A stretch of 64,000 nt of DNA, from positions 3,965 through 67,964 of the forward strand of contig DAOUME010000022.1 of assembly GCA_034411995.1 (NCBI GenBank). Reading direction: 5' to 3'. The stretch is from Anaerolineae bacterium. GTDB taxonomy: Bacteria > Chloroflexota > Anaerolineae > UBA7937 > B3-Chlor. Every line of letters begins with the position of its first letter. Positions within the stretch are counted from its first letter, which is position 1. Made by a program: the position numbers and the translations under genes. The notes beneath the pieces are model-generated. The model worked only from the letters and a program-made list of their open reading frames with translations. It was not told the DNA's origin and made no database searches. This document shows, one piece after another, positions 9,027 to 44,078 of this stretch.

Positions 9027-9262
9027 CTTTATCCTCCACTGGTGCTGGCCAGTCCTCAAATAGAGTGAAAGCACAAGGCTCGGCTCTCCGTCGCGTCACC
9101 ATGTGCTTCCCACCATGCGTTCTGTCAGCGCCGATATTACGGCACAAGCGGCACAGTGTCAAGTCACCAACAACTCAGGGTACCTCCGTCCTTCGGGGCG
9201 ATGGTCGAAATAGTATGCCCACCGCGGTGCGGGGCATCGGCCGCTCCGGGTCATCAGGGATC

Positions 9263-27262: not shown

Positions 27263-27419
27263 GGCAAACTTCAGTTTGCCGCACCCCACACCCCGCAGCG
27301 ATGCCACCGCCCTGTAGGGGCACGGCATGCCGTGCCCCTACCAAGGCGTACACCCCACCTGTTTTTCTGAGCGCAGCGAAGAATCTCAGGCACAGATTCT
27401 TTGCTTCGACTGGGCTCAG
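27263..27419. repeat. cluster of REP-like hairpins
   Basis: 27263-27280 (GGCAAACT-TC-AGTTTGCC), 27314-27341 (GTAGGGGCACGGCATGCCGTGCCCCTAC), 27376-27404 (GCGAAGAATCT...AGATTCTTTGC) nested in CTGAGC/GCTCAG (27367-27419). Confidence 0.7.
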
Positions 27420-27646
27420 GGCAAGCTCTGGTTCGCGCCTCAGGACGACAGGGGGACCGGGCCCCGAGGGCGGGTGATCCACCAAGTCTTGCCGCGCGGG
27501 CCTCGCCCCGCGCTGGGCAAGCCAGCTTGCCCTCGCTGGCCAGTTGTGCTACTATTGATTGACTTCGCCCCTACTTCGAGAACCGCTCGACAGACGCCTC
27601 GCCCCGGCAATGACCCGGGTCTGCCCACGCGCCAGAGGAGGAAAGC

Positions 27647-30600
27647 TTGGTGGCTCAAGAGGATCGCCCACAGGCAACCGCCCCGCCGGAGAGCCGTCGG
27701 GAGATCGAGGGTCTCGTCCAGCGCTTCGCCCGCAACCGCGACGTGTACACCCGCCCCGACTACAAAGAGACCCAGGTCCGCGTGGAGTTCATCGACCCCT
27801 TCTTCGAGGCCCTGGGCTGGGACGTGCGCAACGTCAAAGGGTACGCGGAACAGTACAAGGACGTGGTCCACGAGGACGCCATCAAGATCAGCGGGGCCAC
27901 CAAGGCCCCCGACTACTGCTTCCGCGTGGGCGGGGTGAGGAGGTTCTTCCTGGAGGCCAAGAAGCCCTCCACCGCGGTCAAGGGTGAGGTAGGCCCGGCC
28001 TACCAACTGCGCCGCTACGCCTGGAGCGCCAGGCTGCCCCTCAGTCTGCTCACCGACTTCGAGGAGCTCGCCGTCTACGACTGCCGCCAGCGGCCCCGGC
28101 CCACCGACAAGGCTGGCGTGGGCCGGGTGATGTATTACACCTTCGACCAGTACCTGGAGCGCCTGGACGAGATCTACTCCATCTTCGCCCGGGAATCGGT
28201 CCTCAAAGGCTCCTTCGACCGGTACGTGGAGGACACCAAACGCCAGCGCGGCACCAGCGAGGTGGACGTGGAGTTCCTCAAGGAGATCGAGGGCTGGCGC
28301 GACGAGCTGGCCCGCAACCTGGCCCTGAGGAACCCCCAGCTCTCCGTCCACGAGCTGAACTTCGCCGTGCAGCGCACCATCGACCGCATCATCTTCCTGA
28401 GGATGTGCGAGGACCGGGGCATCGAGAGGTATGGCGGCCTGCTGGGCCTGACCGCCGGTCCCCACGTCTACGACCGTCTGGGGGAGCTGTACCGCGAGGC
28501 CGATCAGAAGTACGACTCCGACCTCTTCGACTTCCAGGCGGACAGACTGACCAGGTCCCTCTCCCTCGACGACAAGACCCTCAAGCCCATCCTCTCCGGC
28601 CTGTACTACCCCGACTGCCCCTACGAGTTCTCCGTGCTCCCCCCGGAGATCCTGGGCCAGGTGTACGAGCAGTTCCTGGGCAAGGTCATCCGCCTCACCG
28701 CGGGCCACCGGGCCAAGGTGGAGGAGAAGCCGGAGGTGAAGAAGGCGGGCGGCGTGTACTACACCCCCTCCTACATCGTGGAGTACATCGTCCAGCAAAC
28801 GGTGGGTCGCCTCATCGAAGGCAAGACGCCCCAGCAGATCTCCAAGCTGCACATCCTGGACCCCGCCTGCGGCTCCGGATCGTTCCTGCTGGGCGCTTAC
28901 CAGCACCTGCTGGACTACCACCGGCGCTGGTACGAAGAGCACGACCCGGAGAAGTACGCCACGGCCAAGCGCCCCGCCCTGTACCAGGGCCGCGGGGGCG
29001 AGTGGCGGCTGACCACGGGGGAGAAGAAGCGCATCCTGCTCAACAACATCTACGGCGTGGACATCGACCGCCAGGCGGTGGAGGTGACCAAGCTGAGCCT
29101 GCTGCTCCAGGTGCTGGAGGGAGAGAGCCAGGAGACGTTGGGCCAGCAGTTGAAGCTGTGGCGGGAGAGGGCCCTGCCCGACCTGGGGGAGAACATCAAG
29201 TGTGGCAACTCCTTGATCGGCCCGGACTACTTTGAGGGGCAGTTGCTGCCCGACGAGGAGGAGATGCGCCGGGTGAACCCCTTCGACTGGGAGAAGGAGT
29301 TCCTCCAGATTATGAAGGCGGGCGGCTTTGACGCGGTCATCGGGAACCCGCCCTACATCCGCATCCAGAGGATCGAGCATAGCGTGGCGGACTACCTCTT
29401 CCGCTCCTATCGGGCTCCGACAAGCAAGACCGACCTCTCTCTGGTGTTTCTTGAGCGCGCTCTGGCCCTAGCAACGGACAGCGGACTTGTCGGCTTCATA
29501 TGCACGTCTCAGTGGCTGTCGACAGACTACGGGCGGAACATGCGGGCCATGCTGTCCGATGGGCGACTTCACCAAGTGGTCGACTTCGGCTCCCTGCCAG
29601 TCTTCCAGAAAGCCAATACATACCCTGCGATCCTGATCCTGAGCCCGACCCGATGCGACGCCCTTGCGCTTAAGCGGATCCGGCGAGGTGAACAGCTGAA
29701 CCTGCCGGGCATCCAAGCTACCGATCCGGTCTTGATCGATCTGGATGGACTATCGGACGACCCATGGAACCTTGGGCGTTTGGATATACCAACGCTGCTC
29801 GGCGAGCGCGGGCTCGAATGGAGACCGCTCAGCGCGTACGCGAACGCGTACATCGGAGTCCTGACCGGCATGGACAGGGCCTTCGTCGTCGAGACGAGGG
29901 CTGCCAAGCAACTCCAGTTGGAGACGGACCTGCTCTTGCCGTACGCGTACCGAGGGGCCGAAGTCCAGCGATATGCTCAGGTGGAGCCTGGGGCCCTGGT
30001 GATTTACCCGTACCGTGAAGGGCCAGGGGGCGCGCCGAGGCTCATCCCCGAACCAGAACTGAGGCGGCACTACCCGAATATCCACCAGCATCTCGTGGCT
30101 CACAAGGATGCTCTGCGTGAGCGAAGAGATAGCCGGAGATTCTACGCGAAGGGGCCAGACTGGTATCGTCACCTGCGCGCGGGCTCCTTCGACTACATTC
30201 ATGCCCGCAAGCTCCTCGTCAAGGGTATTGAGACCCGTACGGTCGTAGGCCTGTTGGACGCGGGGACAGCATTCAATGGCGCGAACTGTCCGGGCGTAAT
30301 CGTCGAAGAGCCACAACAACTCTCGCCTCTCTACATCCTGGGGATCCTCAATTCCGGCGTCATGTCGTATCACCTTCGGATGATCTGCCCGGCGAAGCTA
30401 GGCGGCTACACTAGATTCAATGCTCGCGGCATCAACAGTGCACCCATCCGCACCCTCAGTCGCACAGACCGGGCCGAGGAAGCCCGACACGACAAGATGA
30501 TCGCGCTGGTGGAGCGGATGTTGGACCTGCATGAGAAGCTGGCCGCGGCCACCATCCCCGCCGACAAGAAACTCTACCAGCGTCAGATCGAGGCCACAGA

Positions 30601-30679
30601 TGAGGAGATAGACGCGCTGGTGTATGAGTTGTATGGGTTGACCGAGGAGGAGATCGCTATCGTGGAGGGTCGGGCGTGA
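27647..30679 (+). CDS. type IIG restriction-modification enzyme (fused PD-(D/E)xK nuclease, N6-adenine methyltransferase and specificity domain; Eco57I-like)
   Basis: PDYCF...FFLEAKKP nuclease motif, LDPACGSGSFLL motif I, NPPY at 29345-29356, tail LVYELYGLTEEEIAIVEG; 1010 aa; GAGGAGGAAAG RBS. Confidence 0.9.
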   Translation: MVAQEDRPQATAPPESRREIEGLVQRFARNRDVYTRPDYKETQVRVEFIDPFFEALGWDVRNVKGYAEQYKDVVHEDAIKISGATKAPDYCFRVGGVRRFFLEAKKPSTAVKGEVGPAYQLRRYAWSARLPLSLLTDFEELAVYDCRQRPRPTDKAGVGRVMYYTFDQYLERLDEIYSIFARESVLKGSFDRYVEDTKRQRGTSEVDVEFLKEIEGWRDELARNLALRNPQLSVHELNFAVQRTIDRIIFLRMCEDRGIERYGGLLGLTAGPHVYDRLGELYREADQKYDSDLFDFQADRLTRSLSLDDKTLKPILSGLYYPDCPYEFSVLPPEILGQVYEQFLGKVIRLTAGHRAKVEEKPEVKKAGGVYYTPSYIVEYIVQQTVGRLIEGKTPQQISKLHILDPACGSGSFLLGAYQHLLDYHRRWYEEHDPEKYATAKRPALYQGRGGEWRLTTGEKKRILLNNIYGVDIDRQAVEVTKLSLLLQVLEGESQETLGQQLKLWRERALPDLGENIKCGNSLIGPDYFEGQLLPDEEEMRRVNPFDWEKEFLQIMKAGGFDAVIGNPPYIRIQRIEHSVADYLFRSYRAPTSKTDLSLVFLERALALATDSGLVGFICTSQWLSTDYGRNMRAMLSDGRLHQVVDFGSLPVFQKANTYPAILILSPTRCDALALKRIRRGEQLNLPGIQATDPVLIDLDGLSDDPWNLGRLDIPTLLGERGLEWRPLSAYANAYIGVLTGMDRAFVVETRAAKQLQLETDLLLPYAYRGAEVQRYAQVEPGALVIYPYREGPGGAPRLIPEPELRRHYPNIHQHLVAHKDALRERRDSRRFYAKGPDWYRHLRAGSFDYIHARKLLVKGIETRTVVGLLDAGTAFNGANCPGVIVEEPQQLSPLYILGILNSGVMSYHLRMICPAKLGGYTRFNARGINSAPIRTLSRTDRAEEARHDKMIALVERMLDLHEKLAAATIPADKKLYQRQIEATDEEIDALVYELYGLTEEEIAIVEGRA

Positions 30680-30828
30680 GCGGACGGCGCAGCTGGTCGA
30701 GCCGCACATCCGCTGGTAGGCGCGATGGCCCCGAATCTCGCAATCAGGGCAACCCAATGGGCAGCTAGGTTCGACAGCCGGCCGCGGCCGTGCGGATATT
30801 GGCTGGGCCGGGAGCGCGGAGAGTTGGA

Positions 30829-31656
30829 GTGACCGCAGTTGTAGGCGTAAGTTTCCTCTCGGAAGTCATAATGATCGCAGATACTAGGGTGTCCTGGCCA
30901 GGCGCCCCACGGCCACCAGCAGATATGTTGCGGAAGCTGTACCCGGTCTTTTCGCCGCGAACTCCACAAAAGGCAGCTGTGCTGGGTTTCTCCGGCACAA
31001 TATCGGCGGCCAAAACAGTAATGATACACCTCGTGAAGGACAAGCTTCGCAACTACAATCGGCCCCTGATAATGGTCAATCTGAAAGACCATTTGAAGTG
31101 CTGGATAGAAGAAGTGACGGTGACCTGCCTGAGTCCGAGGAGCAGAACCGGCCTCACCTTCATGCTCTGCGGGCTTGAACCCTCCCGCACTGCTGCTGCA
31201 AGAAAGGGAAACGCGCTCGTGAGGTATAGACAGATCTTGGAAACCCACATATACGTCTTCAGTGTGAGCCAGAGCACCGGCAGAGTAGACGTGGTGAAGA
31301 AAGGCCTCTTCGCCGTCATTGGCTCGGGTGCAACACTCGAGCGAGAGCTGAAACGGAAGATTCCGCCAATGATCAGGTTCGGATTCAACCAGCCGAATCT
31401 GCATTGGGCACGAGCTCGCTTGGTGGGCGAAGTAGCGCGAGGAGTTTTTGACAGCGGCGGCGCAACCACAGTTGGCGGACCGTTTCAAGTGTTCCGCATC
31501 ACAGCAGAAGGCTTGGTCACCGAGTACATCTGGCCGGCAAGTATACAACCAAGAGACGTCAGCGTACGACAAGAAGGCCAAAAGACCATAATACAGAATC
31601 GAGACCTCAACCAGACTTACACGCTCCATCCCATATGGGACCTGCCATTGCAGTAG
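30829..31656 (+). CDS. proteasome-beta/HslV-like Ntn (threonine) hydrolase homologue, stand-alone
   Basis: GTG 30829 lies 5 nt after GGAGAG and gives M-TAVVGVSFLSEVIMIADTRVS: Thr1 directly after the initiator, Asp17 in ADTR, Lys35 in RKLYPV, later AVIGSGAT and DSGG...FRITAEG; this order matches the proteasome beta fold. Confidence 0.6.
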   Translation: MTAVVGVSFLSEVIMIADTRVSWPGAPRPPADMLRKLYPVFSPRTPQKAAVLGFSGTISAAKTVMIHLVKDKLRNYNRPLIMVNLKDHLKCWIEEVTVTCLSPRSRTGLTFMLCGLEPSRTAAARKGNALVRYRQILETHIYVFSVSQSTGRVDVVKKGLFAVIGSGATLERELKRKIPPMIRFGFNQPNLHWARARLVGEVARGVFDSGGATTVGGPFQVFRITAEGLVTEYIWPASIQPRDVSVRQEGQKTIIQNRDLNQTYTLHPIWDLPLQ

Positions 31657-31679
31657 TGGGCGAACCAGCAAGTGGCGCC

Positions 31680-31811
31680 GCCACCATCCCCGCTGACAAG
31701 AAGCTCTGCCAGCGCCAGATGGAGGCCACCGATGAGCAAATCGACGCGCTGGTGTACAAATTGTATGGGGTGACGGAGGAAGAGATCGCTATCGCGGAGG
31801 GCCGGGGTTGA
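31680..31811 (+). repeat. remnant copy 2 of the type IIG gene 3' end
   Basis: 132 nt align without gaps to 30548-30679 (19 substitutions by hand count); encodes ATIPADKKLCQRQMEATDEQIDALVYKLYGVTEEEIAIAEGRG-stop with no upstream ORF. Confidence 0.9.
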
Positions 31812-31851
31812 CAGCCAGAAACCCGATGCGGTAGGGACCTAGACGGGCGGC

Positions 31852-33510
31852 TTGCGGCATGACCAGACCGGCCTCCTCTCGCAGAGCGCAAGGCCGGGCA
31901 ATGCAGCGACCGGGGGCATCAGGGGAAATACATTGACAACCATCTCGCAGGGTGAACTGAACAACCTGAGCGTGCTCATCGTGGAAGATGCGCGGCAGGC
32001 TCTGGAGATGCTACTACGGTATCAGCAGAAGTACCGCGACGACATCAATTTCGCCGCGAACAAAGGAGGTTTGCTGATTGACATTGGTAGTCGTCTCGGC
32101 GACACCGGTGTTGTACGGCAGGGCATGGCGTCGATTGATGAGTTGCTGCCGAGGGCTGGTGAGCAATCTCGTCCCCTTCTCCTCTACAATCTAGGCAACG
32201 GGTATATGGCGTTGCACTCCATTGCTCGGCGCCAACCTGGCTTCTCATTCGACCCCGATGACACTAGACTCCGTGAAGCCAAGCGCTGTTACCGCGGCGT
32301 GCTGGGAGGATCAGAGCGTCTTGATGCCAACCAACGCGCTGGACTCCGAGTGAACTATGGCAACTGTCTCGCGAGTCTTGGCCGTTCCCTCGAGGCAATC
32401 CACCAATACGAGACGGCTCTCCGCCACGCGCCCAATCACCCCATGGCATGGGGGAACCTGGGAGTTGAGTTGGAGCGCTTCGCGTTCGTTGGTCAAGACC
32501 CGGCCATCCTGCGGGCTGCGAATGAAGGGCTACTCAGGGCTCTTGCAGATGATAGCCTTGAGCAAATGGGAGAGGATTCGGCGCGCCCCGGTTTCGAAAA
32601 GGCGCAGCAACGTATTGCACGGCTGTTGAGCCAGCTTGTAGAAGACGCGGGACTGGGCGGGCCCGAGGTGCCCCAGGCCGCGACACCGTATCATCAAGCG
32701 TACAGCGAGTTCTGTGTGAAGCATGAACTCTTCCTGAATTTCTGTCTGAAGGGCCGCCCATGCCAGCGGGTGGCTGAAGATGCTGTCAGTTTGTCAATTA
32801 CCACGCCACTTGATGACGAGACGACCTACCCTCGGCTCGCACGAGTGGTCAACGAGATCAAAGAACGATACGCGGTCGCCCGCCTACTGCTGTTCGAAGC
32901 CTGCAATCCGCCTCTTGACACTCAGCCATATGACGAGATGACCTACTACGCGGACAATCTCGACTACGCCGTATACGGGATTGGTCCCACCAAGCTGAAG
33001 CTGGCCTTTGAAAGTGCCTACAACATCTTGGACAAGCTGGCCTTCTTCGTCAACGACTATCTCGATCTGGGGATCAAGGTGCGGCTGGTGAGTTTTCAGG
33101 GGCTATGGAAGGAGCGCAAGACGGCCGCTCTCAGGCCTGCGATTGTCGAACGTGGTAATTGGCACCTGTATGGCCTGTACGACCTCTCCAAAGACCTAGC
33201 ACCGACAGGCTACCTTGAGCACCTGCGGCTCACCCGAGACTATCTAACACACCGCTATCTGGTGCTCCATGTTGAGGGGCTAGATTGGCTAACGTCCGCC
33301 GATGGTCCTGGGTACCACTCGGGCTACCGCCAGTTGCTGACCAACACGATCGAATTGATGCGACTCGTCCGCAGTGCGGTCATCTACCTCATCGCCTTCA
33401 TCGACCGAGAGGAGCGCGCGAAACGCCAAGACGGAGAGGGCTCTATTGCACCCATGCGTGTCCCGCCTTATAGGCCTTACCGGTTGGGTCCGCAGGATGC
33501 TCCAATGTAG
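31852..33510 (+). CDS. TPR-repeat protein with C-terminal HEPN-like (Rx4H) domain, LA2681-like architecture
   Basis: TPR-like helices (NYGNCLASLGRSLEAIHQYETALRHAPNHPMAWGNLG); C-terminal RLTRDYLTHRYLVLH (R-x4-H); start uncertain (TTG 31852 or TTG 31933 after AGGGGAAA). Confidence 0.6.
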   Translation: MRHDQTGLLSQSARPGNAATGGIRGNTLTTISQGELNNLSVLIVEDARQALEMLLRYQQKYRDDINFAANKGGLLIDIGSRLGDTGVVRQGMASIDELLPRAGEQSRPLLLYNLGNGYMALHSIARRQPGFSFDPDDTRLREAKRCYRGVLGGSERLDANQRAGLRVNYGNCLASLGRSLEAIHQYETALRHAPNHPMAWGNLGVELERFAFVGQDPAILRAANEGLLRALADDSLEQMGEDSARPGFEKAQQRIARLLSQLVEDAGLGGPEVPQAATPYHQAYSEFCVKHELFLNFCLKGRPCQRVAEDAVSLSITTPLDDETTYPRLARVVNEIKERYAVARLLLFEACNPPLDTQPYDEMTYYADNLDYAVYGIGPTKLKLAFESAYNILDKLAFFVNDYLDLGIKVRLVSFQGLWKERKTAALRPAIVERGNWHLYGLYDLSKDLAPTGYLEHLRLTRDYLTHRYLVLHVEGLDWLTSADGPGYHSGYRQLLTNTIELMRLVRSAVIYLIAFIDREERAKRQDGEGSIAPMRVPPYRPYRLGPQDAPM

Positions 33511-33544
33511 TCCCCAGGTGCCGCGTGCAGAACTCTAGTTCGGG

Positions 33545-33598
33545 GTGCTAGTGTATGAGTTATATGGGTTGACCGAGGAGGAGATCGCGATTGTCTGA
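33545..33598 (+). repeat. remnant copy 3 of the type IIG gene 3' end
   Basis: GTGCTAGTGTATGAGTTATATGGGTTGACCGAGGAGGAGATCGCGATTGTCTGA = (V)LVYELYGLTEEEIAIV-stop. Confidence 0.85.
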
Positions 33599-33631
33599 AG
33601 GGCTTCCTCAGCGCAGAGAGTAGGCTGTAGC

Positions 33632-34135
33632 ATGATTCAGCCTTGGAGCGACCCCATACCGTACGACCTATCCCGCACGCTGCGTCGGGCAAGTGTCCCG
33701 CCGGGGTTCAGCAGTAGTGTGCCGCAGACTCCGGGTACGTACGTGATCTATTGCACCGCTCAACCAGACCTATGTGAAGCTATCATTGATATCGGAGAAG
33801 CTGGCCCGCGCGCCAAAGCGAGACCAAAGGGCCTCCGAGGGAGGCTGGCAACTACAGTTGCCCACACGGCCTCTGAAAGGATGGCCGCTGACGTACAGGC
33901 CGGCAAACTCCCGAACAGACTCCGTGTAGTTTGGATCGAGAGGCCGTCCAAAGAGGACGCCAAGGAGTTACAGGACGCACTTATCAGCCTCTTCCGAACG
34001 GATTGCGGACGCCAGCCGCGACACAACAAGAGACTGGAGCAGCACCCAAAGCCTGAGGCCTTCCTGGCGATTTGCGCCGCCCTGAAGAGGCACATTGGCG
34101 GCCTATTGCGCCACCCGACGGCCCGCTGCGGGTGA
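33632..34135 (+). CDS. GIY-YIG-like nuclease domain protein
   Basis: PGTYVIY...IIDIGEAG...GLRGRL...H...VVWIERPSKEDAKELQDALISLF...P.HN follows the GIY / YIG / R / H / E / N order of GIY-YIG domains. Confidence 0.45.
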   Translation: MIQPWSDPIPYDLSRTLRRASVPPGFSSSVPQTPGTYVIYCTAQPDLCEAIIDIGEAGPRAKARPKGLRGRLATTVAHTASERMAADVQAGKLPNRLRVVWIERPSKEDAKELQDALISLFRTDCGRQPRHNKRLEQHPKPEAFLAICAALKRHIGGLLRHPTARCG

Positions 34136-34244
34136 CCAGACCGGCGTGCCCCAGGTTGGAGTGAGCGCTGCCCCCCGGCGGGCTCAGCCCGAGGGGGCCG
34201 GGGGCAAATCGTTCGGTGCAACAGCAGAATCAAAGGAGGAGGAG

Positions 34245-34691
34245 ATGTCTGAGTTGCTCACTGCTATCGGCGTCGTATCAGCCGCTAGTGTGTCGATCCT
34301 TAGTGTCTTTGTCCCTTCTTACTACGACAGGCAGCACCGCAAGGAGGAGAAAGCCGACGCCGAACTCCGAAGAATAGACGAGACTACCTTGGGTTTTCTA
34401 GCACAGCTCTCGAACTTCCGGCATTGGGAACCCAGGAGCCTTCAGAAGATCGCGGGGGATCGTGCACTAGAGCATCTCTACACCGACTTGCAGGTAGCGC
34501 AGTATGCTTGGGAGCGCGCCGTTTGGCCAAAACTGGGTGATCAAGACCGCGCCAAGGTCGAGACCATCCGCACAAGGCTTGAAGGGGTCCATACCGCCAA
34601 CGACCTGTCGAGACGCGCAAATGAGTCGGATGTTCCTGCATTGGCAGATCAAATCCTCGCATTGGCTCGTGCCGCAAATGGACGGCCCTAG
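34245..34691 (+). CDS. uncharacterised protein with one N-terminal TM helix
   Basis: ATG 34245 after AAAGGAGGAGGAG; LLTAIGVVSAASVSILSVFV helix, then a helical soluble part. Confidence 0.5.
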   Translation: MSELLTAIGVVSAASVSILSVFVPSYYDRQHRKEEKADAELRRIDETTLGFLAQLSNFRHWEPRSLQKIAGDRALEHLYTDLQVAQYAWERAVWPKLGDQDRAKVETIRTRLEGVHTANDLSRRANESDVPALADQILALARAANGRP

Positions 34692-34770
34692 TCGACCAAG
34701 TGTGTTTGGTTTTGGTGTACAGTGTGCACTGACGCACAGCTGCTTCGGCCCAACAATGGCTTGACCCCAT

Positions 34771-34849
34771 GGGGAGATCGACACGTTGGTGTATCACTTG
34801 TATGGGTTGACGGAGGGAGAGATCGCTATCGTGGAGGGGCGATCGCTGA
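34771..34849 (+). repeat. remnant copy 4 of the type IIG gene 3' end
   Basis: Encodes (G)EIDTLVYHLYGLTEGEIAIVEG; a 1-nt indel lies near the former stop. Confidence 0.85.
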
Positions 34850-35029
34850 ACGCGCTGCGCGGACCGGCTACCCCGAAACAGAGTTCGGTGATCTCTCGGG
34901 GCTCGGATGTGGCATGGTGATGGGGACCAACGTTGGGCCACTGCGCCAGTTGAGGTGACTGGGTGGAAAGATGTCCGCATAATCATTAGTTAGCACGCTT
35001 CACGCCGCTGACGCTCGGGAAGGAAAACC

Positions 35030-36085
35030 ATGAGCAAAGAAATCCTAGTGAGAATGGACATACCAATCCCCGCTCACAAAATCGTCAATACACCTGCCAT
35101 GGTTTTCAGCAGGTGGATGCCTCTGGACGAGGATGAGTCTATTGTAGTCCAAGAGGAAAACGCCACCCTGAGGTTATGGTTCGACAGAAGTTGCTGGCAT
35201 AACGTGACTCACGCGGGAGGAGACATACCTAATCACGTGAATGTTCTCGTAGACAAGGTATTCGCAGATGTAACGCTCCGCGACTTGTCTGAGGGTTTAG
35301 TAGACTACATTGAACTCACAGCCACTGAACCTCACCCTCCAGAGAGCCCCTACCAGCAAGAGTACCGGGAGCTAGGACAGAAAGTGTACCTTCTAACTCT
35401 CACCTACCTGAACAGATTGATTAACTACGCACGAAGCATGAAGGGGCAATACTGGCTACAAGAATACCCCCTTAGCGAAGCTGAGGGCCTGTCTACTGTC
35501 AACCTGGCTTTCAAAGCCCGTGTCCTAATCGACTCTGAATGGGTTAGGTGGTTCCCGGATGTCAGGCAGCTAGTTATCGGCAGGGTGGGAGGCTGTCAAG
35601 ACAGAGAGCGTTTCATAGACAAGGACTCCTGGTCACAGGTCAGGAGCTTCATCACATCAAAGCAACGGGCCTCACTTGTCCGGGAACTCCTCGCCGGGGC
35701 AGAGTGGCTCGCTGGAATTGGGCACCGCAGAAGTGCATTGACAGAAGCAATAACAGCACTTGAAGCCGCAATCACCACATTCTCAAACCAGCCCAAAGCA
35801 GAGGAAGCTTTCGGCTCTCTTATTACGGAGAGAATGAACGTGAGCTCACTGAGCAATTGGACTGAAAAGATGGGTTTGTCGGGCACCATTCACTACCTCT
35901 TCCCACTGGTATTCTCTGAAGAGATGATGCCCACCGACATTCTGACAGATTGTCAGGAGGCGATACTAGAGCGCCAGAATGTGGTGCACAACGCTCAGCG
36001 AGATGTTCAGGAAGATAAGCTGTCAGTGTACCTGGAGGCAATTCGCAATATGTGTCGCCTGCTCGAAACTTACCAGCAAACTTAG
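35030..36085 (+). CDS. uncharacterised protein with C-terminal HEPN-like Rx4H motif
   Basis: Visibly AT-richer than its surroundings; GGAAGGAAAA RBS; C-terminal helical region with ILERQNVVHNAQRD (R-x4-H). Confidence 0.45.
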   Translation: MSKEILVRMDIPIPAHKIVNTPAMVFSRWMPLDEDESIVVQEENATLRLWFDRSCWHNVTHAGGDIPNHVNVLVDKVFADVTLRDLSEGLVDYIELTATEPHPPESPYQQEYRELGQKVYLLTLTYLNRLINYARSMKGQYWLQEYPLSEAEGLSTVNLAFKARVLIDSEWVRWFPDVRQLVIGRVGGCQDRERFIDKDSWSQVRSFITSKQRASLVRELLAGAEWLAGIGHRRSALTEAITALEAAITTFSNQPKAEEAFGSLITERMNVSSLSNWTEKMGLSGTIHYLFPLVFSEEMMPTDILTDCQEAILERQNVVHNAQRDVQEDKLSVYLEAIRNMCRLLETYQQT

Positions 36086-36259
36086 TACCTAGTCACGCAG
36101 TCCATCCCGAGAAGAGCGTGGTAACAGGTCGCTGGCGGCGACAGCCCCTGTCGGTGCCAGGCTGCGTGTGGAGCGACGACTCGGCGATACTCCAGGCTAG
36201 CGGAAGAGCGTCGACGAGAAGACTCAGGCACGCGAAATGACCTATCGCTTCTACGAGAA

Positions 36260-36460
36260 TTGTGCGTGCGACCCAAGAAGGCGAAGATACATTTCTCCAA
36301 TTGCAGGTCCTGCAACTACGGATTAGGAAAAAACAAGCACAAGGTGGAAGGGCTTCACGGGAGATGGCACGGCCCATTCTCGACGTTCGAGGAGGCATGG
36401 GACGCAGCACAACACACCGGCAAGAAGCCGACCACCTGCGGCCACTGCAGACCTCGGTGA
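36260..36460 (+). CDS. small CxxC...CxxC zinc-ribbon protein
   Basis: 66 codons: HFSNCRSC...GRWHGPFSTFEEAWDAA...CGHCRP; no clear RBS; TTG/GTG start. Confidence 0.35.
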   Translation: MCVRPKKAKIHFSNCRSCNYGLGKNKHKVEGLHGRWHGPFSTFEEAWDAAQHTGKKPTTCGHCRPR

Positions 36461-36574
36461 GAGGGGCGGCGCTGCGCCTTGTGCGCTTGCGCGCCGCTGG
36501 TCCAGCTCTACCCAAGCAGACCGCTCTGCCATGGAGGGGTCAATCACCCAGGCACCCAGCGACACCTTCGTAGA

Positions 36575-36593
36575 GGCGGGTCTGAGACCCGCC
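36575..36593. repeat. palindrome GGCGGGTCTGAGACCCGCC (core shared with 42898, 45062 and 46636 elements)
   Basis: Perfect inverted repeat around TCTGAGA. Confidence 0.6.
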
Positions 36594-36734
36594 CGCAAGC
36601 GGCCTCCCGATTCGTCATGGTCGTTCGCACAAACCTCGGCCGGTGCGCCGGTTTGGAGCACCACGCGCGACGCTGTCGGCCAGGCAGCTCGGATCAAAGA
36701 GCTCCATAGTCACGAGTGAGGGACTAGCAACGTC

Positions 36735-37478
36735 ATGAGCATTCGTTTACTCGATTGCGCGCCGATGGCTCCCCGGTACCCACGGTGGCACCTGGGGACT
36801 CCCTGTCTGCTCGTCGACACCGACCAGGGCCTCGTTCTCGTCGATACCGGCCTCGGCCTGCACGACTTTCTGGCCCCAGGGCCCCTGGTCCGCCTCTTCG
36901 CGTGGGCTTTGCGCTTCCCTCACGATCCCGAGCACGCCGCCGTGCGCCAGCTCTCGCGCCTGGGCCACGACCCCGAATCTGTCCGGCACATCGTGATGAC
37001 CCACCTCCATTTCGACCACGCCGGGGGCCTTCCCGACTTCCCCCACGCTCAGGTTCACGTACACCGCCGCGAGTACGAGGCCATGCTCCATCCTCGCAGT
37101 CTGCTAGAGCTGGGCTACGATGGCCTCGATTTCGCCCATGGGCCCTCCTGGGTTCTCTACGACCAACCCACCGAGGACTGGCTCGGGTTCGAGGCTTTCC
37201 GGCTGCCCTTCACGCCGGAGATGTATCTCGTCCCACTCTTCGGCCACACCCGCGGCCATTGCGGGGTAGCCATCCAGGACGATGATGGTTGGGTCTTGCA
37301 GTGTGCCGACGCCCTGCCCACGAATGCTGACTTCGACCTCACCCCGCCATGGCTCAACCGTTTGGTGATCGGACCGCACGTTGCCAGGTTGCGGGAGTGG
37401 GCTTGCCGCCATCCCGAAGTTCGCCTGTTGGCCGGGCACATGCGGCACCCTTTCCCCGATCACAAGGGCGAAGTCTGA
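36735..37478 (+). CDS. MBL-fold metallo-hydrolase
   Basis: HLHFDHAGG metal-binding motif, later H and D ligands. Confidence 0.85.
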   Translation: MSIRLLDCAPMAPRYPRWHLGTPCLLVDTDQGLVLVDTGLGLHDFLAPGPLVRLFAWALRFPHDPEHAAVRQLSRLGHDPESVRHIVMTHLHFDHAGGLPDFPHAQVHVHRREYEAMLHPRSLLELGYDGLDFAHGPSWVLYDQPTEDWLGFEAFRLPFTPEMYLVPLFGHTRGHCGVAIQDDDGWVLQCADALPTNADFDLTPPWLNRLVIGPHVARLREWACRHPEVRLLAGHMRHPFPDHKGEV

Positions 37479-37505
37479 GAGTCCCCGGCCGAAGCGGACC
37501 CGACT

Positions 37506-37544
37506 GGAGAAGAGATCGCTATCGTCGAGGGCCGGAATTGCTGA
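37506..37544 (+). repeat. remnant copy 5 of the type IIG gene 3' end
   Basis: GGAGAAGAGATCGCTATCGTCGAGGGCCGGAATTGCTGA = GEEIAIVEGRNC-stop. Confidence 0.8.
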
Positions 37545-37839
37545 ACCGCTGAGGCCAGCTTCGCAAGGCCAGGCCTGACACCCGCCCCTACCAACCCCCC
37601 AGCCCTGCGTGCGGCGGGCCTTTCTTTGCCCAACACAGACTCGCGAAAGAACCTGAGCTCAGCATACACTTGCGGCAGCTAGCCCTTCTGGCGCCACTGA
37701 GTGCCGCCCGGACACAGCCCATTGGCGAGGACAAACGTGCGCCTGAGGCGCCAGATGGCTTGACGGCGCCGAACGATATCCCCATAATCACTAGTTGGGA
37801 GGACACAACAGGAGGGAATATGAAAGAGCGCGAATCAGT

Positions 37840-38832
37840 ATGGGAAGATTGAGAGTCGGCTTGCTGAACAAGAAACGGGGCAACTTTGCACTCGAAGAAA
37901 GGTTCATAGGCCCCGATGGCGTCGTTGATAGGACGAACGCCGAAGCAGAACATCACCAGCGGGCCCTGACCGAAGCCGGTTACGTTGTCCGCCAGATTCG
38001 CTGGGGCCCTGATTTCATCAACGATCTACAGGCTTCCCCAGTCGATCTTGTGTTCAACGTTTCCAGTCTGGTAGAAGCCGCGATCCTCGAAGAATTGCAG
38101 ATACCCTACGTGGGCTCCGATACGTTCACCATCGCCATCGCCACCGACAAATCGCTGGCGAAAAGGCTCTGGCAGCAGGCGGGCCTGCCGACATCGCCTT
38201 TCTGGCTGGCCAGATCGCAGAAGGACTGTGGCCTGTTTGGGGGCATCCCACCCTTCGAGTATCCCCTGTTCGTCAAGCCGGTGGCCGGCCGAGGCAGCGC
38301 AGGGATCGACGACACGTCCATCGTTCACAGCTACGACCAACTGGTCAGCGCAGTTGTGGAAAGGCTGGAGACTATCGGTCAACCAGTCCTCATAGAGAAG
38401 CTGCTGCGGGGCAGAGAAATCACCCTGGGCGTCCTGGGAAATGAGCGCGCAAGGGCCCTTCCTCCATTAGAGATCGCGTATTGCGAGGGGGATGACACAC
38501 TGACTTTCGAGAAGAAAGAGTTGGACAACGATACCTTCCTCTGCCCTGCTCCGCTGACCGCTGAAGAGACCCACACCATGCAGCAATTGGCGCTTCGGGC
38601 CTACCACGTGTTGGGCTTCAGGGACTTTGGCCGAATTGACACGATCTTGACCGACGAAGGGCCGTGCTTGTTGGAGGGGAACACTTTCGCGGGGCTCATG
38701 TGCACACCCAAGGAGAAACCTCGTAGCTATATTGGCTTCATGGCTCGCGCAGAGGGAAAGGACGGCAAGGCTCTGCTGGATGAGATCATGCAGATAGCTA
38801 TCAGGAGACTCAACTTGAAAGCCTGTGATTGA
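37840..38832 (+). CDS. D-alanine--D-alanine ligase family ATP-grasp enzyme
   Basis: Ddl-like order: LRVGLL..., PYVGSD, KSLAKRLW, FVKPVAGRGSAGI, LIEKLLRGREITLGVLG, GRIDTILT...LEGN; start ATG 37840. Confidence 0.8.
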   Translation: MGRLRVGLLNKKRGNFALEERFIGPDGVVDRTNAEAEHHQRALTEAGYVVRQIRWGPDFINDLQASPVDLVFNVSSLVEAAILEELQIPYVGSDTFTIAIATDKSLAKRLWQQAGLPTSPFWLARSQKDCGLFGGIPPFEYPLFVKPVAGRGSAGIDDTSIVHSYDQLVSAVVERLETIGQPVLIEKLLRGREITLGVLGNERARALPPLEIAYCEGDDTLTFEKKELDNDTFLCPAPLTAEETHTMQQLALRAYHVLGFRDFGRIDTILTDEGPCLLEGNTFAGLMCTPKEKPRSYIGFMARAEGKDGKALLDEIMQIAIRRLNLKACD

Positions 38833-38833
38833 G

Positions 38834-39436
38834 ATGTCAGTACCTCGGATAGAGATAGAACTCGACAAACTGAGCCATAACGCCCGCAAGCTGATAGCTC
38901 TATACGGTTCCAAGCGAATCCACATCGTGGCTGTCACGAAGGGGCTCTGTGGCTCTCCCAGGATTGCGAATCCTCTGCTCAAGAGCGGATTCCGCTGCTT
39001 CGGCGACTCACGCACCCCCAACGTACGAGAGCTGCGCGAGGGTGGCATAGATGCGCAATTCACCTTCATCCGCTCCCCCATGCCCAGCCGGGTCGAGCGA
39101 GTGCTCGAATCTGACGACGTAAGTCTCGATACAAAGATCGCCGTTATGCAGCTTCTTGCCGATGAGGCCACCAGATGTGGCAGAAGCCATCGAGTCAGTC
39201 TGATGGTTGGGCTGGCCTATCTACGGGAGGGCATACTACCCTCCGATCTCGAGCCGGTGGTGAAGGGGATCATTGGCATGCAAGGCATGGATCCACTTGT
39301 CTCCGGCAGGCTGCGGGACGATAATCTGCTGGGCTGGGGTAGTGCCCGCCCGTGGGAGGAAAGGGCAGGCCCAGCGTGCTCATCCGCGTGGATCGGCGGA
39401 AGGGTCGCGCCTGATTCTCTCCCTGAGCAGCGATGA
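38834..39436 (+). pseudogene. truncated amino-acid racemase-like (alanine racemase N-terminal domain) gene
   Basis: HIVAVTKGLCG (PLP-Lys context) and MVGLAYLREGI are present, but the ORF is about 200 aa against roughly 350 expected, and the C-terminal 60 aa look non-homologous. Confidence 0.45.
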
Positions 39437-39483
39437 CCTTCGAGCAGTCGAACCGGCGCGGTTCGGAAAGGAGGGCTACACCA

Positions 39484-40512
39484 ATGTCTGCTTCAACCAT
39501 ACTGGGATACGCCGCGAGGGCGGTGGGACAACCGCTCGAGCCCTTCACCTACGAGCCGCCGCCGTTGGACGAACACGACGTGCGGGTTTCTGTCACTCAC
39601 TGCGGCGTCTGCCACACCGACGTCCACGCCATCGACGACTACTACGGAATCACCACCTATCCCTTCGCGCCCGGTCACGAGATCGTGGGCTACGTCTCGG
39701 ATGTGGGCCCGGCAGCGTCCGGCCTGAAGGAAGGGGACAGGGTGGGCATAGGCTGGCAGGGCCGTTCTTGCGGGCAGTGTGAGTGGTGCTTGAAGGGAGA
39801 AGAGCAACTGTGTATGGACATCGTCCAGGCGGCAACCTGGCTCCCCTACGGAGGGTTCTCCTCCTCCGTCGTCGTGGACAGCCGCTTCGCCTACGGGCTC
39901 CCTGACGGTATGCCCTCGGAGATAGCCTCGGTGCTCATGTGCGCCGGGATCACCGTCTACTCTCCCCTCCGCTCCTTCGCCGCGCCACCCTCGCAGAAAC
40001 TCGGCATCGTCGGCGTGGGAGGGCTGGGCCATCTCGCCCTACAGTTCGCCCGCGCCTTCGGCTACGAGGTCACCGCCATTTCCTCGTCCCCAGAGAAGAA
40101 GGAGCAGGCGCTGGCCTTCGGCGCAGACCACTTCGTCGTCTCGGACCAGGCCAGCCTGTCCGAGCTCGAGTTCACCTTCGACCTGCTGCTATGCACCGCC
40201 AGCGGCAAGATCGACTGGGTGCCGCTGCTGGACACTCTGAAGAAGAACGGCAAGATGATCCTCGTCGGCTTCCCCGACGTGGAGCTCAATTCGACCGACC
40301 TGGTGGCGCACCAACTCTCCATCCTCACGTCCTTCCTGGGCAACCGGGCGCGAATGCGGGAGATGCTGTCGTTCGCGCAGGCCCACGGCATTACCCCCGC
40401 CATCGAGCAAATGCCCATGTCGGAGGTCAACGAAGCCCTTCAGAGAGTGAGAGACAACCAGGCCCGCTACCGCATCGTGCTCGTCAACGAGACGGAGAGC
40501 ACAGGGGCCTAG
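39484..40512 (+). CDS. zinc-type NAD(P)-dependent alcohol dehydrogenase (cinnamyl-ADH/YahK-like)
   Basis: GVCHTDVH, GHEIVG, CGQCEWC structural-zinc motif, GVGGLGH; ATG 39484 after GGAAAGGAGGG. Confidence 0.9.
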   Translation: MSASTILGYAARAVGQPLEPFTYEPPPLDEHDVRVSVTHCGVCHTDVHAIDDYYGITTYPFAPGHEIVGYVSDVGPAASGLKEGDRVGIGWQGRSCGQCEWCLKGEEQLCMDIVQAATWLPYGGFSSSVVVDSRFAYGLPDGMPSEIASVLMCAGITVYSPLRSFAAPPSQKLGIVGVGGLGHLALQFARAFGYEVTAISSSPEKKEQALAFGADHFVVSDQASLSELEFTFDLLLCTASGKIDWVPLLDTLKKNGKMILVGFPDVELNSTDLVAHQLSILTSFLGNRARMREMLSFAQAHGITPAIEQMPMSEVNEALQRVRDNQARYRIVLVNETESTGA

Positions 40513-40590
40513 TCCCCCCTTCCCTCACGGGTGATCTGGTCCAGCCAGACTCGCACCATTACTGCTCAGACTACGGCACAGGAGGCCACC

Positions 40591-41823
40591 ATGGATTACG
40601 ACTTCGACGCCGAGGTCGACCGCCGAGGCACCGACTCTCTGAAATGGGAGTTCATACAGAGCGACGAAGATCCGCTGAAGTGGGAGCTCACCGATTCTTT
40701 CTTCGGAGAAGACCGTACCCTCCCCTTGTGGGTGGCGGACATGGACTTCCCCTGTCCCCAGCCGGTAGTGGATGCGCTGGTGGCCAGGGCCCAGCACGGG
40801 ATCTACGGCTACACCATGCCCTCTCCCGCCTTCTATCGATCCGTCGTCGGCTGGATGCGGAGACGGCACGGGTGGGAGATAGCGCCCGAATGGATCTGTA
40901 TCACCCCTGGGGTCGTGCCGGCCGTCAACATGCTGGTCCGCGCCTTCGTCGCCCCTGGCGACAAAGTACTGATCCAGCCCCCGGTCTACTATCCTTTCTA
41001 CTCCGCCATCGAGAACAACGGCGCCGAGCTGGCCCTCAACCCCCTGATCTACGAGGACGGTCGCTATCGCATGGACCTGGCGGACCTGGAGGCCAAATGC
41101 CAGGATCCTCAGGTCAAGCTGGCCATCCTGTGCAGTCCGCACAACCCCGTGGGGCGCGTGTGGACCCCGGAGGAGCTCCGCCGCTTTGGGGAGATCTGTA
41201 TCGACAACGACGTGCTCGTCGTCTCTGACGAGATCCACGCCGACCTGATCTTCAAAGGTCACGTGTTTACGCCCTTCGCCAAGGTCAGCGAACCCTTCGC
41301 CCAGCATTCCGTCACCTGCACCGCGCCCAGCAAGACCTTCAACCTGGCCGGGTTGCAGACCTCTTGTATCGTCATCCCCAATCACGATCTGCGCTCCGTC
41401 TTCGATAGAATCGTGCAGAGCAACGGGCTGGTCACCGTCGGCACCTTCGGCGCGGTTGCCCTTCAGGCCGCGTACGATCTTGGAGAGGAATGGCTGGGGC
41501 AGCTTCTCGACTATCTCCAGGGGAACCTCGAATACCTCGAGCAGTACGTGGCGGAGCAGATCCCGCAACTATCCGTGGTGCGACCAGAGGGGACCTACCT
41601 GGTCTGGCTCGACTGTCGCCGGCTTGGGCTCAGCAAGTGGGGGCTAAAGCAACTCATGCTGGAGGAGGCGAGAGTCTATCTCGACGAGGGTTTCGTGTTC
41701 GGCCCCCAGGGTGAGGGCTTCGAACGTCTCAACATCGCTTGCCCCCGAGGAGTCCTGGCTGAGGCGCTCGATCGAATCAGGCAGGCCGTGGAAAGCCTGC
41801 CGGCCGGACCGATGTCCGCGTAG
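40591..41823 (+). CDS. MalY/PatB-type PLP-dependent C-S lyase (aminotransferase class I/II)
   Basis: DRRGTDSLKW, WVADMDF, SPHNPVGRVW, SKTFNLAG (PLP Lys); ATG 40591 after GGAGG. Confidence 0.85.
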   Translation: MDYDFDAEVDRRGTDSLKWEFIQSDEDPLKWELTDSFFGEDRTLPLWVADMDFPCPQPVVDALVARAQHGIYGYTMPSPAFYRSVVGWMRRRHGWEIAPEWICITPGVVPAVNMLVRAFVAPGDKVLIQPPVYYPFYSAIENNGAELALNPLIYEDGRYRMDLADLEAKCQDPQVKLAILCSPHNPVGRVWTPEELRRFGEICIDNDVLVVSDEIHADLIFKGHVFTPFAKVSEPFAQHSVTCTAPSKTFNLAGLQTSCIVIPNHDLRSVFDRIVQSNGLVTVGTFGAVALQAAYDLGEEWLGQLLDYLQGNLEYLEQYVAEQIPQLSVVRPEGTYLVWLDCRRLGLSKWGLKQLMLEEARVYLDEGFVFGPQGEGFERLNIACPRGVLAEALDRIRQAVESLPAGPMSA

Positions 41824-41881
41824 CCGGTCGCTGAGCAGCCCCACGCCGTGCTCGTCACATCTCCCAGAGGGTTACAGGAAG

Positions 41882-42886
41882 ATGAACGAAGAGGACCAAC
41901 CTGCTTGGGTGAATCCGCGTCTCGTGCGGCCGCACGGCTGGTCACCCATACTGCACGTCGACCTGGAAAAGATGACAGACCAGCAGAGGCAGACGTTTGC
42001 CCTTCATCGCCTCTCCGGTTTCACGGCTGCGGGTTACCCTGCAGAGAGGTGCTACCATTTCTACACCAACAAGCAAGCTGAGTCCTTCTCGCTGCCCACC
42101 TACGTGTGGACACCCTGGAGCAGAGACTCAACCGCGTTGGAACCCGCGAAGATCGAATCGGTGCAGGAAATGCTGCCGTACGTCGCGGATGAGGAAATTG
42201 TCCATGTCTGTCGTTCTCTCATCGAACAGGGACAACTGCTGGACCACACCAGCGAGCAACTGGGCCGGGCACTCGCCGACTTCCTTGGCCTACCCTCCCC
42301 AGAAACCGACCGGCATTCCGAGCAACTGTGGCGACGAGCGAACGAGTATCGCGCGAAGCACGGCCCGGCCTGGGCAAGTCAGGCACAGATCAGGCCACTG
42401 GTCGCCCAGTTGAAGGACGTCTTCGTGGAGCTGAGTTCGTCGCAGTTTGAGCTTCACGGCAGGCTCCGACCCTATTACGAGCGCCTGGCCCCAGGTGGCG
42501 CGGAGATGGGCGATCAACGAGCCGACGACCTGGTCAACCAGGCCATGGAAGAGCCCGACGCCGATCGTGCCATACGCCTGCTCGAGAGAGCCTTACGATA
42601 CGGCAAGACCGGTATCCCGGCCAGCAGGGCCTACGTGGAACTTGCCGGACGCTACTCAGACCGGGGGGAGACCAAGAGAGCCATCGCCTACTACACCAAG
42701 TCCATCGAAGCCTCCAAGATTCCTAACGCCTACGCTCTCTACTGGCGGGGAGAGCTATACTATCAGCAAGAGGAGTGGGACAAGGCGCTCGGCGATTTCG
42801 AACGGGCGGTGTCCATAGGGCTTTTCTCGCCCGAGTGCGAGCAGGCGCAAGAGTATCTAGCCGAGCTGCGTGGCCGTCAGCCCTAG
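41882..42886 (+). CDS. uncharacterised protein with C-terminal TPR repeats
   Basis: AYVELAGRYSDRGETKRAIAYYTKSIE...ALYWRGELYYQQEEWDKALGDFERAV. Confidence 0.55.
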   Translation: MNEEDQPAWVNPRLVRPHGWSPILHVDLEKMTDQQRQTFALHRLSGFTAAGYPAERCYHFYTNKQAESFSLPTYVWTPWSRDSTALEPAKIESVQEMLPYVADEEIVHVCRSLIEQGQLLDHTSEQLGRALADFLGLPSPETDRHSEQLWRRANEYRAKHGPAWASQAQIRPLVAQLKDVFVELSSSQFELHGRLRPYYERLAPGGAEMGDQRADDLVNQAMEEPDADRAIRLLERALRYGKTGIPASRAYVELAGRYSDRGETKRAIAYYTKSIEASKIPNAYALYWRGELYYQQEEWDKALGDFERAVSIGLFSPECEQAQEYLAELRGRQP

Positions 42887-42897
42887 CGATGACCCGT

Positions 42898-42945
42898 GGG
42901 GGTGGGTCTCAGACCCGCCCCTACGCAGGTGCCCTTGCTACGTGG
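42898..42945. repeat. 48-nt element GGGGGTGGGTCTSAGACCCGCCCCTACGMAGGTGCCSTTGSTACGTGG, copy 1
   Basis: Aligns to 45062-45109 with 4 mismatches; contains a palindrome around TCTCAGA. Confidence 0.8.
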
Positions 42946-43069
42946 GGTGATCTCACCCCCGCATACCGTCCGGGCCTGAACAGACATGTCGGCATAGCCA
43001 GTAATCAGCCGCCCCGTCGTGGTACTCACGGTCCCGCTTCGTGGGCAAGGGTAGAGCGGAGGGAGAGTG

Positions 43070-43882: not shown

Positions 43883-43992
43883 CGACCGCGGCCACGTCGT
43901 AGAAAGTGCAGCGCAAAACGGCAGGTGTCGAATGGATTGTGTTCATAGGGGCGACGGCCCATAAGGCGCTACAGGGCCAGACTCGGGCCACC

Positions 43993-44031
43993 GCTGGAGA
44001 GATCGCTACGGTGGAGGGGCGGGACCGCTGA
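43993..44031 (+). repeat. remnant copy 6 of the type IIG gene 3' end
   Basis: GCTGGAGAGATCGCTACGGTGGAGGGGCGGGACCGCTGA = AGEIATVEGRDR-stop. Confidence 0.75.
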
Positions 44032-44049
44032 GAACAGCGAGGGCGCACT

Positions 44050-44078
44050 GTAGGGGCGAGTCGGCGACTCGCCCCTAC
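44050..44078. repeat. REP-like palindrome GTAGGGGCGAGTCGGCGACTCGCCCCTAC
   Basis: Perfect 13-bp arms; same flanks as the 17804 and 27314 elements. Confidence 0.75.

Follow-up and report, generated by a model that had tools for sequence, protein, structure and literature searches.

A TPR-HEPN gene of the LA2681 family as cargo of a repeat-bounded array that follows a type IIG restriction-modification gene, and its possible role as an antiviral RNase

This study was concerned with a gene on the plus strand, at positions 31933..33510, of a 64,000-nucleotide stretch of DNA from an Anaerolineae bacterium (contig DAOUME010000022.1 of GenBank assembly GCA_034411995.1), which as a whole is called the window here. 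Judged from profile matches, its product is an intact member of the LA2681 family that has an N-terminal TPR half and a C-terminal HEPN domain, and the assignment is no chance match. The gene is exchangeable cargo in an array bounded by repeats and located downstream of a type IIG restriction-modification (RM) gene, and its product would therefore most likely be a suicide-type antiviral RNase. With just over even confidence, we read the protein as a self-contained abortive-infection sensor-effector RNase that forms a second line behind restriction. The observed basis for this reading consists of an intact HEPN site, a TPR solenoid, a single-gene distribution, cassette status and a recurrent linkage to RM genes.

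The TPR-HEPN protein and its family

The features of the gene are as follows, in positions of the window.

31933..33510, plus strand: TPR-HEPN (LA2681 family) gene; TTG start, 525 amino acids; identical database protein, Pfam PF18733 at E=4.6e-46
31933..32637, plus strand: N-terminal TPR-like helical solenoid, amino acids 1-235, with the clearest TPR signal at amino acids 105-199
32815..33411, plus strand: HEPN_LA2681 domain, amino acids 295-493
33235..33252, plus strand: R-x4-H catalytic motif, R435 DYLT H440, from the translation; invariant in 46 homologues

An earlier note on this DNA had described the gene as an open reading frame (ORF) of 552 amino acids. The longest ORF, 31852..33510 (+), does comprise 552 codons from its first TTG, but the real start is almost certainly the TTG at 31933 and not 31852, because the public collection contains an identical protein of 525 amino acids, encoded by a 328-kb NCBI contig as well as by a Logan contig, and more than 100 homologues of 500-556 amino acids align from residue 1 to this TTG. 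The sequence GGGGA lies 8 nucleotides 5' of it.

The earlier note had also assigned the C-terminal half to a HEPN domain of the LA2681 family with an R-x4-H motif, and the profile search agrees with this. The HEPN_LA2681 profile (PF18733) matches amino acids 295-493 over profile positions 3-204 of 204, with 157.2 bits against a cut-off of 27. The motif RLTRDYLTHRY is encoded at 33226-33258, with R435 at 33235-33237 and H440 at 33250-33252. Conservation of these two residues was, beside the profile match, the point on which the assignment had been made to depend, and neither varies among 46 aligned homologues (30-74% identity). The same alignment contains five other invariant residues in the HEPN half (N307, R317, T337, K356 and D367) and seven in the N-terminal half (G52, N89, G90, K117, N141, N144 and R151). 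The protein has the helical-bundle fold of HEPN domains, and the solved structures closest to it include the HEPN toxins 8xdj and 7ae2.

The TPR-like helices that the earlier note had seen in the N-terminal half were likewise recovered. Single-sequence Pfam TPR matches are below the gathering threshold; the LA2681 family profile matches solved TPR proteins at positions 105-199, down to 2e-26 for natural proteins (OGT) and 1.8e-46 for an engineered one. An N-terminal TPR fusion of this kind is the typical architecture of the LA2681 family, and no ATPase domain was matched in the N-terminal half. An OGT-like 'asparagine ladder' was considered for the conserved Asn residues of the TPR half and then dropped, because Asn at such positions is generic TPR consensus.

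The family profile matches 1,429 clusters (50% identity) at E<=1e-30, a level that some TPR-rich proteins also reach, and the full-length TPR-HEPN architecture is kept in more than 120 homologues. Members occur in both bacteria and archaea with a patchy spread across phyla; 26 plasmids from cultured bacteria and a single phage contig carry members too. Anantharaman et al. 2013 (PMC3710099) list the family as 'fused to TPR' and give neither an RM link nor an experiment, in agreement with the earlier note, which knew of no experimentally defined role. A LA2681-family protein of E. coli, with log-odds of ~9, is among the entries of the DefensePredictor supplement (PMC13092281), where it is labelled a 'predicted novel defense gene'.

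Linkage to restriction-modification genes and the cassette array

Loci with relatives of the gene (59, with eleven more added later; designated by L and a number) were collected for comparison, and the related-locus scan was built on 15 closer sequences. Fifty-four loci were informative in that they contained at least 75 nucleotides of upstream sequence, and tail peptides, the C-terminal ends of type IIG enzymes, were counted as well as type IIG genes. When the neighbouring ORFs were clustered, the dominant partner was a type IIG gene of one family, located immediately upstream on the same strand. It was found in 14 of the 54 informative loci, 13 of which have a gap of 23-66 nucleotides; the fourteenth (L051) has an AbiJ-like gene between the type IIG and HEPN genes. 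The recurring partner that the earlier note overlooked is the type IIG RM gene itself. These 14 loci belong to two well-separated clades of the HEPN tree with ~32% mutual identity. Clade 2 has a conserved 23-nucleotide spacer and no downstream tail copy, and its type IIG-HEPN pair precedes varied genes (release factor, tricorn protease, RhuM). The window belongs to clade 1, where a tail copy lies 3' of the HEPN gene in the window itself and in L002, L011, L012, L016, L019 and L065; L013 is the only clade-1 locus with downstream sequence that is without one. In addition, the hsdS and hsdR genes of a type I RM operon in L067 (1-8252) are separated by an insert that consists of two different HEPN genes side by side (AbiU2 and LA2681) and two unknown genes.

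No neighbour gene was common to all loci in the clustering, and members of the family usually stand alone in variable regions of the conflict type. The TPR-HEPN gene is the sole gene common to ~70 loci, and on plasmids it is solitary among RHS/immunity, WYL, nuclease and insertion sequence genes, which fits the single-gene sensor-effector proposed in the earlier note. Other recurrent neighbours are a PD-(D/E)XK/Cas4-like nuclease, a 300-amino-acid reverse transcriptase, TIR, integrase and TROVE, and RhuM is a further neighbour of defence type. These neighbours are typical of defence and conflict regions, and the defence type predominates. Neither an MNT-type nor any other antitoxin gene was found beside the TPR-HEPN gene in any locus. 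The reverse transcriptase gene (RVT_1) lies 140-200 nucleotides upstream on the same strand in three loci of one clade (L022, 1774-4268; L023, 1770-4264; L026, 4316-6834), and RVT_1 and TPR-HEPN may there represent a retron- or DRT-like pairing with TPR-HEPN as the effector.

In the window, the type IIG gene matches PADLOC REase_MTase_IIG over its full length (E=2.5e-226). Its last ~135 nucleotides, which encode …IPADKKLYQRQIEATDEEIDALVYELYGLTEEEIAIVEGRA followed by the stop codon, recur downstream as direct repeats, and copies of its last 40-135 nucleotides set the cassettes apart. Tail copies 2 and 3 below are the two RM-tail remnants between which the earlier note had correctly placed the TPR-HEPN gene.

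27647..30679, plus strand: intact type IIG RM gene, the anchor of the array; HSDR_N-like nuclease, Eco57I/MmeI-type methylase and TaqI_C (Pfam)
30544..30679, plus strand: tail copy 1, the functional type IIG 3' end (…IPADKKLYQRQIEATDEEIDALVYELYGLTEEEIAIVEGRA, then stop)
30829..31656, plus strand: cassette A, 275-amino-acid protein resembling N-terminal nucleophile (Ntn) hydrolases
31677..31811, plus strand: tail copy 2, 5' of the HEPN gene, ~86% identical to copy 1
31933..33510, plus strand: cassette B, TPR-HEPN gene
33548..33595, plus strand: tail copy 3, shortened and frameshifted, 37 nucleotides past the HEPN stop codon
33632..34135 and 34245..34691: cassette C, two small ORFs
34774..34845, plus strand: tail copy 4, closes cassette C
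35030..36085 and 36735..37478: cassette D, 351-amino-acid protein and metallo-beta-lactamase (MBL)-fold gene
37503..37545, plus strand: tail copy 5, short, closes cassette D; terminator-like hairpin next, at 37604-37618
37795-43882: possible cassette E, with Ddl-like ligase, alanine-racemase-N-like (Alr-like), zinc alcohol dehydrogenase (ADH), aminotransferase, TPR protein and S-adenosylmethionine (SAM) methyltransferase
43996..44032, plus strand: possible tail remnant 6 (GEIATVEGRDR, then stop), a weak match at E ~0.1; perfect hairpin next, at 44050-44078

The GC content at third codon positions is 0.66 in the HEPN gene and 0.58-0.67 in the cassette genes up to 36085, versus 0.85 in the type IIG gene, and the codon usage of the TPR-HEPN gene is foreign. 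The ORFs scanned, which covered ~15-52 kb of the window, included no integrase, transposase or recombinase. No tail arrays were found on plasmids, where a search with the 45-amino-acid tail peptide gave only two single haloarchaeal matches.

Arrays of this type were also found in related genomes. The type IIG homologues L072-L074 were sampled without regard to HEPN. L072 (type IIG gene 86% identical) has five tail copies and L073 (62% identical) has six, four of which encode identical …DAEIDALVYELYGLTEEEIAIVE; neither contains a HEPN gene, and their cargo consists of MJECL34, RelA_SpoT, DUF4268 and unknowns. L074, a type IIG homologue at another locus, has no array. L002 and L065/66 have orthologous arrays with the HEPN gene at differing positions. 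At least five related genomes carry tail-repeat arrays, with different cargo and no integrase in sight, and the array belongs to this chromosomal locus:

Window, 30544-44032
L002, 3605-10139
L065, 3592-14556
L072, 12896-21474
L073, 7411-14295

The identities of the HEPN and type IIG genes were discordant in pairwise comparison:

Window and L011: HEPN 67%, type IIG 31%
L047 and L056: HEPN 80%, type IIG 50%
L047 and L027: HEPN 73%, type IIG 27% (C-terminal part)
Window and L047: HEPN 31%, type IIG 48%

Thus, the two genes have recombined relative to each other many times. Because the orthologous arrays carry other cargo, two of them without HEPN, and because the identities are discordant, the clade-1 HEPN gene looks like one cargo among many. 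A functional link between HEPN and restriction is plausible from the conserved pair of clade 2 and from the type I case. The type IIG genes of the window (27503-30483) and L065 (532-3533) have 91% DNA identity over the first 1.9 kb, cannot be aligned over the next ~1.1 kb (29370-30482; the methylase end and the TaqI_C specificity region), and can be aligned again in the tail, which suggests that the specificity region was swapped.

The tail copies themselves have several unusual features. They are 80-90% identical to functional tails, whereas the adjacent HEPN proteins are only 42-70% identical. In six of seven clade-1 loci the copy is in frame with the upstream HEPN ORF across one stop codon (TAG in four, TAA in two), and the linker is 9-10 codons long in five of the six in-frame loci; the window copy is frameshifted and shortened. 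The copy in L019, of at least 55 codons, matches the type IIG end of its own locus. In addition, some tail copies are intact ORFs of 42-48 codons that overlap the start of the next gene. The stretches behind the HEPN genes are:

L002, 5298-5391
L011, 4464-4514
L012, 2731-2817
L016, 808-897
L019, 11485-11685
L065, 8689-8781
Window, 33511-33595

The copy in L011 is split by an insert of ~65 nucleotides (4515-4578) that carries the repeat cgaccaRcgggagYcc within it and may be a miniature mobile element.

We infer that cassettes are exchanged by homologous recombination. The ordinary reading leaves the conservation of the tail, the in-frame copies and the intact overlapping ORFs unexplained. For the conservation of the tail, the in-frame copies and the L019 match, a partial explanation could lie in conversion of the copies by the functional tail, in selection acting on them, or in their repeated formation through recombination. 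We put forward, tentatively and with rather less than even confidence, that the conserved C-terminal tail of this type IIG enzyme family doubles as a portable recombination site that would build and reshuffle integrase-less defence and toxin arrays behind the RM gene, with TPR-HEPN as a widely travelled cargo. In a stronger version, the TPR domain may bind the tail peptide itself, and activation of the RNase would thereby be coupled to the status of the restriction enzyme.

The adjacent cassette A had been taken in the earlier note for an Ntn hydrolase and for a possible second component of a two-gene unit with the HEPN gene. The first proposal is plausible. The protein belongs to a conserved family with 20 homologues and no Pfam match, its invariant T2, D18 and K36 mirror Thr1/Asp17/Lys33 of proteasome beta subunits, and weak in-register matches to these subunits were obtained (E 0.07-0.7), so that a stand-alone, proteasome-beta-like hydrolase is probably encoded. 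A public gene caller's minus-strand ORF at 30583..31671 was rejected as non-coding, since the plus-strand ORF has the 20 conserved homologues. The two-gene unit was rejected. None of the 59 HEPN loci contains a member of the cassette A family, and neither HEPN nor type IIG genes were found beside its homologues; thus, the Ntn-like gene does not co-occur with TPR-HEPN and the two-gene idea fails. The other cassette proteins of the window were also not found in the 59 HEPN loci by tblastn.

Several further observations concern the remaining cargo. The metabolic-looking run has tail copy 5 on one side and the possible sixth copy on the other, and it may therefore be array cargo as well; in L065 an ADH gene likewise has a tail copy after it. 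Searches of cassettes C and D1 gave nothing with Pfam at E<=10 or with PHROGs. The 351-amino-acid protein of cassette D (35030-36085) ends with ILERQNVVHNAQRD, which contains an R-x4-H motif, and it may be a second, unrecognised HEPN-like protein, with no Pfam or PHROG match. The 167-amino-acid protein of cassette C (33632-34135) contains GTYVIY…IDIGEAG…R, which by eye resembles the GIY-YIG nuclease motif, with no profile match. A promoter-like element (TTGAnn/GTGACT, 17 nucleotides, CATAAT, then CAyTAGTT) precedes cassette D (34955-34983) and the Ddl-like gene (37760-37788), and it is present twice in the L002 array (9040-9201 and 10318-10479). Perfect hairpins of the form GTAGGGGC…GCCCCTAC at 27314-27341 and 44050-44078 bracket the type IIG gene and the entire array. 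With 13 occurrences in the window versus 2.3 expected, the octamer GTAGGGGC may be a genome-wide element resembling repetitive extragenic palindromes (REP-like).

Proposed function and alternative explanations

HEPN RNases have dimeric composite active sites and are known in abortive-infection, toxin-antitoxin and RM-linked roles, and some are coupled to RM systems, for example PrrC and RloC (PMC3710099). We infer the mechanism of the TPR-HEPN protein from the precedents of HEPN RNases and TPR domains. The HEPN domain would be a metal-independent RNase in which two domains join to form the active site, as in other HEPN RNases, and the TPR domain would hold the enzyme latent. TPR domains bind proteins and peptides, commonly extended or C-terminal ones. 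Binding of an infection-derived protein or peptide could release or assemble the enzyme, or the TPR domain could control oligomerisation, and the active RNase would then cut cellular RNA (tRNA, rRNA or mRNA), so that the infected cell stops growing. The gene is repeatedly found behind type IIG genes and once inside a type I RM operon, and the RNase may therefore be a second, RNA-directed line behind DNA restriction.

Several points weigh against this reading. First, approximately 75% of the family loci have no adjacent RM gene, and some neighbours are housekeeping genes (HypD, a phosphonate-binding protein, GH16). Secondly, the array of the window carries metabolic-looking genes (Ddl-like, ADH, aminotransferase), and thus array membership alone is no proof of defence. 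Third, the residue after R435 is D in the window copy and N in most homologues. In addition, the TPR-HEPN protein had no match in PADLOC-DB v2 (E<=0.1), NCBIfam or PHROGs, and no experiment on any LA2681 member was found in the literature.

The alternative that survives best, although we consider it unlikely, is that the protein is a guard of the kind represented by PrrC. Its TPR domain would contact the type IIG enzyme, perhaps at the conserved acidic C-terminal tail (…LYGLTEEEIAIVEG), and the RNase would thereby stay inactive until a phage anti-restriction factor disables or displaces the enzyme. The position of the gene directly behind the type IIG gene in two distant clades, with the 23-nucleotide spacer conserved in clade 2 and the same pair placed ahead of different genes (release factor, tricorn protease, RhuM), speaks for such partners, and the L067 gene occupies the hsdS-hsdR position of PrrC. 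The type IIG partners are only 27-63% identical, the tail is their best-shared feature, and extended or C-terminal peptides are common ligands of TPR domains. However, ~75% of the family are without an adjacent RM gene, the members on plasmids are solitary, and in the window another cassette sits between the type IIG and HEPN genes. In the five orthologous arrays HEPN is one of many unrelated cargo genes and is missing from two, and the discordant HEPN and type IIG identities speak against co-evolving partners.

We give still less credence to a selfish addiction or stabilisation module, that is, a self-inhibited toxin whose chief effect would be to punish cells that lose the cassette or the RM locus, and not to ward off phages. 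HEPN toxins are common in toxin-antitoxin systems (PMC3710099), the sister arrays hold toxin-antitoxin-like cargo (M78/HTH with DUF4411, a RelA_SpoT-type gene and DUF4258), and the flanking direct repeats could delete the cassette, but an antitoxin gene is absent from every locus and a single stable polypeptide has no obvious route to post-segregational killing. Least probable is a role outside defence, in which the protein would bind or process RNA, or regulate the RM gene, and its gene would simply ride in a variable region: the housekeeping neighbours of some members, the metabolic-looking genes in the array and the existence of non-catalytic, RNA-binding HEPN families (PMC3710099) are compatible with it, but the catalytic-motif R and H are strictly invariant, the distribution over phyla, plasmids and a phage contig is patchy, the codon usage is foreign and the neighbours are predominantly of defence type.

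The LA2681 family is large and has been named since 2013, and there are several reasons to test it as an RNA-directed back-up to restriction: its catalytic pair is invariant, the linkage to RM genes is recurrent, and the model is confident. The context may outweigh the protein, in that the 3' end of an RM gene is reused as a cassette spacer. If this is true, defence genes could be gathered and exchanged in this way without an integrase, and new defence genes would be discoverable by searching between tail copies.

Comparison with known systems

The protein does not differ in structure from the HEPN_LA2681 family described in 2013; the full-length profile match, the R-x4-H motif, the N-terminal TPR fusion and the occurrence in bacteria and archaea are all shared. 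The TPR-HEPN protein thus joins an already known family, and what is new here is the context, in which members of the family are directly linked to RM genes of type IIG and type I and the gene is flanked by tail repeats. No prior description of the HEPN and type IIG linkage, of the tail motif, or of type IIG cassettes and direct repeats was found in the literature.

PrrC and RloC are likewise HEPN RNases located within or directly behind an RM operon, the L067 gene shares with prrC its location between hsdS and hsdR, and the common logic is that of an RNA-directed back-up to DNA restriction. However, the regulatory domain of PrrC and RloC is an ABC-type ATPase, whereas the TPR-HEPN protein has a TPR domain and no ATPase. 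The usual partner in the LA2681 family is a single-chain type IIG enzyme, most members are not linked to RM genes, and there is no evidence for masking by the RM enzyme, a feature of PrrC. ApeA and CBS-HEPN DS-11 (DefensePredictor study) also combine a regulatory domain and a HEPN RNase in one protein, and their defence is of the abortive type and requires the catalytic residues; the TPR-HEPN protein belongs to another HEPN family and has another putative sensor, the TPR domain. HEPN-MNT toxin-antitoxin pairs share the HEPN fold, but no MNT or antitoxin gene accompanies the TPR-HEPN protein, which is ~4x larger and carries the TPR domain.

Lastly, the array of the window resembles integron arrays and the 'minimal mobile elements' of Neisseria in that unrelated, mostly single-gene units are set apart by a recurring separator at one chromosomal site, and the cargo varies among related genomes, much of it defence- or toxin-antitoxin-like. 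The separator of integrons is attC, used with IntI, whereas that of the window array is the coding 3' end of a type IIG gene, with no integrase among the ORFs of the region scanned.

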